Assembly (NCBI GenBank): GCA_044892505.1
Contig: CM097882.1
Coordinates: 487,692,001-487,756,000, forward strand
Length of the DNA stretch: 64,000 nt
DNA from: Schmidtea nova
Taxonomy: Eukaryota
Reading direction: 5' to 3'
Numbering within the stretch: position 1 is the first letter of the stretch; every line of letters starts with the position of its first letter. The notes under the pieces are model-generated. The model made no database searches and was not told the origin of the DNA. It was given only the letters and a program-made list of their open reading frames with translations. Positions 20,643-20,654 of the stretch are shown here, in pieces. The position numbers and the translations under genes were made by a program.

Positions 20643-20654
20643 GCCGCGATAGCT
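20643..20654 (-). promoter_or_regulatory. Element E non-canonical PBS AGCTATCGCGGC, complementary to predicted tRNA-Phe nt 1-12
   Basis: Abuts the 5' LTR with no spacer and has no TGG start. Reverse complement GCCGCGATAGCT is the acceptor 5' strand implied by element A's PBS plus the conserved TAGCT of tRNA-Phe. Confidence 0.7.

Follow-up and report, generated by a model that had tools for sequence, protein, structure and literature searches.

How might an LTR retrotransposon begin its minus strand when the sequence next to its 5' LTR matches the 5' end, rather than the 3' end, of a host tRNA? The question is raised by an element, here called element E, found on the minus strand of the window, i.e., the whole stretch of 64,000 nucleotides of Schmidtea nova DNA that was analyzed. 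An earlier note, made from the letters alone, had proposed that the 12 nucleotides following the 5' LTR of this element are complementary to the first 12 nucleotides of a predicted tRNA-Phe, and that minus-strand synthesis would be primed by a 5' fragment of this tRNA cut in the D-stem. The features that bear on this proposal are listed below, with those of element E first and that of the unrelated gypsy element A last.

20655 to 20767, minus strand: 5' LTR, 113 nt, TGTGG...CAACA, with zero spacer to the site (LTR pair alignment)
20643 to 20654, minus strand: predicted primer-binding site (PBS), exact complement of tRNA-Phe(GAA) nt 1-12 (sequence match)
20088 to 20639, minus strand: gag (Retrotrans_gag, PF03732), with its ATG 3 nt past the site and its frame closed by a stop in the window copy (Pfam)
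18654 to 20087, minus strand: first part of pol, with aspartic protease, RT (YVDD) and DUF7047, and an internal stop at its end in the window copy (Pfam)
17196 to 18653, minus strand: second part of pol, with RNase H (RVT_3 match) and the zinc finger and core of the integrase (Pfam)
17196 to 17204, minus strand: polypurine-tract-like AGGGCGGAA, adjoining the 3' LTR (sequence)
17084 to 17195, minus strand: 3' LTR, 112 nt, with 111 of 112 aligned bases the same as in the 5' LTR (LTR pair alignment)
22247 to 22264, plus strand: canonical PBS of gypsy element A, complementary at 18 of 18 positions to the CCA-tailed 3' end of the same tRNA-Phe

The site, its element and the host tRNA

Read on the minus strand, the LTR of element E ends in TTCAACA, which is followed directly by AGCTATCGCGGC and then by ATT ATG, with no TGG, so that the site lies where the earlier note had placed it. 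On the plus strand, GCCGCGATAGCT at 20643-20654 is the sole match in the window at up to two mismatches. Element E has the hallmarks of an LTR retrotransposon, i.e., an LTR pair with TG...CA ends, a Target Site Duplication (TSD), sequences in the positions of the PBS and the polypurine tract (PPT), and gag-PR-RT-RH-IN, with the Pfam domains in the order of gag, protease, RT, DUF7047, RNase H, and integrase. The insertion point is a (TA)n tract flanked by ATATG/ATATA, and the window copy is interrupted by stops after gag and inside pol. The short purine tract of the loci L203-L218 is preceded, across families, by a common ATC(A/T) motif.

The predicted host tRNA proved to be real, given that the copies inspected with ARAGORN are tRNA-Phe(GAA) genes that start with GCCGCGATAGCTCAG and finish with CCCGGTTCGCGGCA. 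The 15-mer GCCGCGATAGCTCAG has 2,511 matches in the genome, versus 0 for the control. The site is the exact reverse complement of nt 1-12 of this tRNA (12/12), the match stops at nt 1, and the elements A and E match opposite ends of one tRNA-Phe, all of which agrees with what had been claimed from the window.

The tRNA arrays of the host genome are very large and organized in tandem, with approximately 2,500 copies of the tRNA-Phe(GAA) gene (240-bp period), 681 of Lys-UUU (419 bp), and 469 of elongator Met (243 bp), in addition to Lys-CUU arrays and mixed Thr arrays. Array loci are found at C1:566.9 Mb, C3:72.8 Mb, C2:282.5 Mb, C2:333.4 Mb, and C1:20.7 Mb (L033, L220, L327, L196, and L176). 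Element A itself contains, between gag and pol, an open reading frame at 25253-26188 (plus strand) that matches a Monjiviricetes fusion glycoprotein (PF24664, E 1e-16), and a second gypsy element, with 198-bp LTRs that are 99% identical and a TGG-type site, is nested within it at 33381-37956.

Distribution of the site in the host genome and in relatives

The 12-mer AGCTATCGCGGC has 3,292 matches in the host genome, versus 6 for the control, which indicates that its abundance is not due to chance, and approximately 780 matches remain once the tRNA form is subtracted. The first 90 consecutive non-tRNA matches on contig C1 all combine an LTR-like end with the site; 85 of these ends finish in CA, none of the 90 has a TGG at the LTR edge, and 89 run into a gag-like frame start that is common within at least seven families. 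The base after the site is variable (T in 37 matches, A in 31, and C in 22).

Copies of family E were chosen by RT similarity, and 26 of the 30 examined have an alignable LTR end. The site is exact in 20 of these 26 and decayed in six, and a TGG is present at the LTR edge in none. The earlier note had left room for copies with a conventional TGG-type PBS and for a site that is not conserved within the family; neither was found. The distance from the site to the LTR is 0 nt in 14 of 21 elements, the others being one with a clipped 3' LTR and six without an LTR pair. Exact 5-bp TSDs flank six copies (L203, L206, L212, L213, L215, and L218), and the full elements measure 3.5-3.8 kb.

A second class of site, AGCTATCCGGGC, complements the host tRNA-Lys(UUU) over nt 1-12, sits past LTR ends in the same way, and accounts for approximately 70 of the first 100 non-Phe variants listed; the tRNA-Lys(UUU) 12-mer has 1,127 genome matches, of which 681 are of the tRNA form. 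A site for the host tRNA-Thr (GCCCCTATAGCT) is absent from these 100 listed variants, and the Met-type site was not found in the host genome above the control level (80 matches versus 104 for the control). Of 100 listed matches, a single one is of the Drosophila-type variant, and its locus has no RT match.

Two further candidates were rejected. The sequence AGCTATGACGGC, considered as the site of a third primer tRNA, is frequent in the host genome, where an unrelated repeat, which has no RT match, contains it in its reading frame, and there is no array of such a tRNA (10 matches versus 6 for the control). The locus L204, in which the 12-mer and two further bases stand past a 3' LTR and are followed by a hAT-like transposase fragment, was considered as a retained copy of the primer and was set aside for its lack of a TSD.

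The swapping of LTRs was also observed, with near-identical gag sequences joined to unrelated LTRs and the similarity stopping three bases (ACA) into the LTR, so that the site is kept (the window at 20657 versus contigs of the three other sequencing runs X5-X7; L023, L006/L275, and L012/L297).

Outside the host, protein relatives of the lineage are named from cnidarians (Hydra), molluscs (Aplysia and Plakobranchus), nematodes (Trichuris), and several crustaceans. An earlier metagenome scan and a viral scan found no relatives, and a profile built from 61 proteins recovered 79 metagenome loci and eight loci in bacterial genome bins; in 55 of these 87, the stretch upstream of pol is 700 nt or longer. 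When no prior motif was imposed, the top 7-mer in these upstream regions was CAAGCTA, present in 46 of the 55, and 43 of the 55 fit the pattern of CA followed by AGCTA-NNNN-GGC (AGCTA-N5-GC), in 11 variants. Variation is confined to acceptor-stem positions 4-7, and conservation stops at nt 1: across 46 distinct rows, nt 3 carries 2.0 bits of information, nt 2 carries 1.34, nt 1 carries 1.59, the base that follows carries 0.39, and nt 5 carries 0.1 (the 2.0 bits of the nt 8-12 columns are circular, as these columns anchored the alignment).

Four of the variants, which cover 21 of the 43 loci, are verified tRNA 5' ends, i.e., those of the host Phe, the host Lys-UUU, the host Lys-CUU, the Drosophila Phe, and the zebrafish Lys-TTT, the latter two through probe sequences given in the available text of PMC7038984 (Drosophila tRNA-Phe 5' probe) and PMC4688932 (zebrafish 5'tRF-Lys-TTT probe). 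The other seven variants (22 of 43 loci) have the same shape and match no main tRNA sequence; one of them, TCAC (7 loci), corresponds to a rare copy in the host Phe array, and a literature search for the tRNAs of the remaining variants returned nothing useful. The four bacterial bins with relatives contain no tRNA-like match to the sites of their elements. The retrotransposon contigs in these bins (L130-L137) are most likely contamination by animal DNA.

Six loci have no anchor. Two (L117 and L083) begin at or after the site, three (L062, L115, and L126) lack it for no clear reason, and the last, L116, appears to be of the Met type: it reads CAACA, then CGCTACCGAGGC at positions 1409-1420, then TC ATG, and this site is complementary at 11 of 12 positions to the host elongator tRNA-Met, which has G12 instead of U12. 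The sources of the primer would thus extend beyond Phe, with Lys used and elongator Met probably so. The earlier note had named tRNA-Phe, which stands for element E and not for these other families.

A rapidly built RT tree with 64 rows, in which L135 and L206 were wrongly labelled as having no variant, requires 29 changes of site variant where 11 would be the minimum, and closely related elements can carry different variants (L097 versus L107/L114); a site that is rewritten from the tRNA of its host would behave in this way. The earlier note had also called for a survey of co-variation between the site and each host's own tRNA; here, conservation across the clade and change with tRNA sequence are both seen, and co-variation host by host is predicted.

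A predicted mode of priming and its rivals

From the sequence evidence, the 12-mer that abuts the LTR is likely to be the primer-binding site, and a tRNA 5' fragment of 12 nt is predicted to initiate minus-strand synthesis, a reading to which a probability of roughly 0.8 may be given. The duplex of the site with nt 1-12 is calculated at -24.7 kcal/mol, versus values of -14.3 and -8.9 when the tRNA 3' end and the anticodon arm, respectively, are paired. In forming it, the site would invade the acceptor 5' strand and the D-stem of the tRNA, and a cut between nt 12 and 13 would leave a 3'-OH exactly at the LTR edge. Minus-strand DNA must start at this edge, and the template base located there is paired to nt 12, from which we infer a 3'-OH at nt 12. 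The cut would most likely be made, at about even odds, by the RNase H that the element itself encodes, following the example of Tf1, and this domain is present in element E according to Pfam. Alternatively, a host nuclease may be involved, or a longer 5' fragment may be trimmed; the 5' tRNA fragments commonly described are longer than 12 nt. Plus-strand synthesis would use the primer as a template and fall off once its 5' end is reached, which would explain both the stop of the match at nt 1 and the tracking of the host tRNA sequence by the site. Every matched tRNA has U8-A9. G9 is commonly methylated, and this methylation blocks pairing, so that it may limit the choice of tRNA.

The two bases nearest the LTR can be read in another way, in which the primer is a tRNA 5' piece that ends at nt 10 and the AG on the LTR side is a two-base overhang removed by the integrase. 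Two-base spacers are common in LTR elements, and AA or GA often precedes the TG on the PPT side, but the AG is complementary to C11-U12 and is still present in 97 of the first 100 among the 717 matches to CANNCTATCGCGGC, in which these two bases were left free. In addition, L116, the one family in which the LTR-proximal base is altered to fit nt 12 of its tRNA, has C as its first base and a matching tRNA-Met with G12, which a fixed spacer would not follow. This reading is therefore improbable.

The pairing of nt 1-12 would also free the 3' strand of the tRNA, and a TGGT is found in the LTR of element E approximately 38 nt before its end, which lend something to the idea that an intact tRNA is held at the site through its 5' strand and has a packaging or structural role in a bipartite, Ty3-like arrangement, with the free 3' CCA end or some other RNA priming elsewhere. 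The terminal CA of the LTR is, however, preserved only by a minus-strand start at the LTR edge, where the base pairs with nt 12, and neither the family-E copies nor the C1 sites described above have a TGG at this edge. Together with the weak pairing of the tRNA 3' end, this makes such a capture quite improbable.

Self-priming of the Tf1 type, in which the element's transcript would itself provide the primer with its 5' end and the tRNA match would be incidental, is very unlikely. A helix between the site and the LTR can be formed in family E (nine pairs, including three G-U, at -12.0 kcal/mol, with a shuffle p of 0.03), but p values of 0.05 or lower were obtained in five of 43 elements, where approximately two are expected, and exact complements in the upstream stretches of these 43 do not exceed 6 nt, while the 5' LTR of element E offers a Watson-Crick complement of at most 3 nt. 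The exact matches to several different tRNAs would also be left unexplained.

Least credible is a motif with no relation to tRNA, conserved as an RNA signal or for the binding of a protein, such as a palindromic dimer signal combined with start-codon context, for although AGCT is self-complementary, the gag ATG lies within a few bases of the site, and chance look-alikes such as AGCTATGACGGC occur, the variable positions correspond letter for letter to real tRNA acceptor stems, and the host elements carry the host versions, the single Drosophila-type match being at the locus without RT.

The preferred reading, i.e., priming by a 5' tRNA piece that ends at nt 12, leads to a broader proposal, which may equally well hold or fail. 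It would constitute a fourth primer type, and thus a fourth mode of priming the reverse transcription of LTR elements, in which an unclassified, animal-wide lineage of compact LTR elements would anneal nt 1-12 of a mature tRNA at the LTR edge and cut the D-stem with its own RNase H, in a trans version of Tf1 self-priming that is possibly a link between tRNA- and self-priming. If this is true, a new tRNA cut site is predicted, together with a role for very short 5' tRNA pieces, 5' rather than 3' tRNA fragments could police such elements, and programs that seek a TGG to find the PBS would miss the whole clade. The site also offers an inexpensive way to recognize a lineage that appears to lie outside the classic Gypsy and BEL/Pao markers.

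Comparison with known lineages and priming systems

The lineage, characterized by PR-RT-RH-IN, DUF7047 and a length of 3.6 kb, appears to fit the markers of neither classic Gypsy nor BEL/Pao, and is unplaced. The domain order is that of Ty3/Gypsy (Metaviridae), and the PR-RT profile gives 70 bits for a gypsy element versus 24-30 for BEL. The RH part, however, matches BEL (12-13 bits) and not gypsy, and the gypsy RNase H families PF17917/PF17919, which are matched by both gypsy elements in the window, are absent from the 25 families listed for the 61 members. The BEL/Pao (Belpaoviridae) markers Peptidase_A17 (PF05380) and DUF1758/1759 were found in only one of the 61 members, with E values of 0.063 and 0.056. 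Searches of the PDB and the Atlas returned a divergent RT and nothing more.

Like Troyka and the Kuafuorterviruses, as described in the available text of PMC12440569 and PMC11673190, this is an animal LTR lineage with PR-RT-RH-IN that appears to lie outside classic Gypsy, but Troyka has CG...CG ends, a 3-bp TSD, and I/V/LADD (PMC12440569), whereas here the ends are TG...CA, the TSD is 5 bp, and the RT motif is YVDD. The Saci2/lennie elements, in the portion of PMC4558846 consulted, have a 4-bp TSD, a length of 4.7-5.2 kb, and a PBS for the tRNA 3' end, in contrast with the 5-bp TSD and 3.5-3.8 kb found here. Going by these descriptions, the clade is neither Troyka nor Saci2/lennie, from which it is set apart by its termini, TSD, size, and PBS.

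Three types of primer are distinguished in the available sections of PMC6317226, i.e., the 3' end of a whole tRNA, a half tRNA cut in the anticodon stem, and a self-primer. The earlier note had held that the priming of element E differs from all of these, and the site has the defining trait of none. It does not start with TGG or complement a CCA end, it pairs with the anticodon arm of tRNA-Phe (nt 24-40) at only the -8.9 kcal/mol given above, and the 5' LTRs of 43 elements hold no more than 6 nt of the approximately 11-nt complement to the PBS that is seen in Tf1. No paper describing priming by tRNA nt 1-12 was found in the literature searched, which included six variants of the site as literal strings, although an earlier notice is possible, given that Repbase Reports and most subscription papers lay outside this scope; the accessible parts of PMC13537249, PMC7773854, and PMC12859917 likewise contain nothing on it.

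Canonical 3'-CCA priming, as in element A and, in the text available for PMC4558846, in Saci2/lennie, resembles the predicted system in that the site adjoins the 5' LTR, and element A even uses the same tRNA-Phe, but it engages the opposite end of the tRNA and needs no cut.

Half-tRNA priming is known in Ty1/copia elements, for example Drosophila copia, Ty5, Osser, Bryco, Bianca, and the fungal Copia/Helenus, and is limited to Copia in the available portions of both PMC6317226 and PMC10886601. It shares with the present case a host tRNA truncated at the 3' side as the primer and a site without TGG. Going by the same partial texts, both the pairing and the cut in those elements are in the anticodon stem-loop, whereas here the pairing is with nt 1-12 and the predicted cut is in the D-stem. 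The tRNAs used here would be Phe, Lys, and probably elongator Met, and the integrase lies after the RNase H, unlike in Copia, where it precedes the RT.

The most likely overall reading is that of priming by a tRNA fragment with a geometry like that of Tf1, which would mark a broad and poorly classified lineage of animal LTR elements. In Tf1, from Schizosaccharomyces pombe, the transcript's initial 11 bases pair with the PBS, and this RNA-RNA duplex is cleaved by the RNase H between bases 11 and 12, according to the part of PMC7175516 available. As in these Tf1/sushi elements, an LTR-adjacent PBS would pair with the outermost 5' nucleotides of an RNA (11 in Tf1 and 12 here), and a cut would be needed just past the duplex. 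The difference lies in the origin of the primer, which in Tf1 is the element's own transcript, while here it is predicted to be a host tRNA that acts in trans, with no self-complement in the element.
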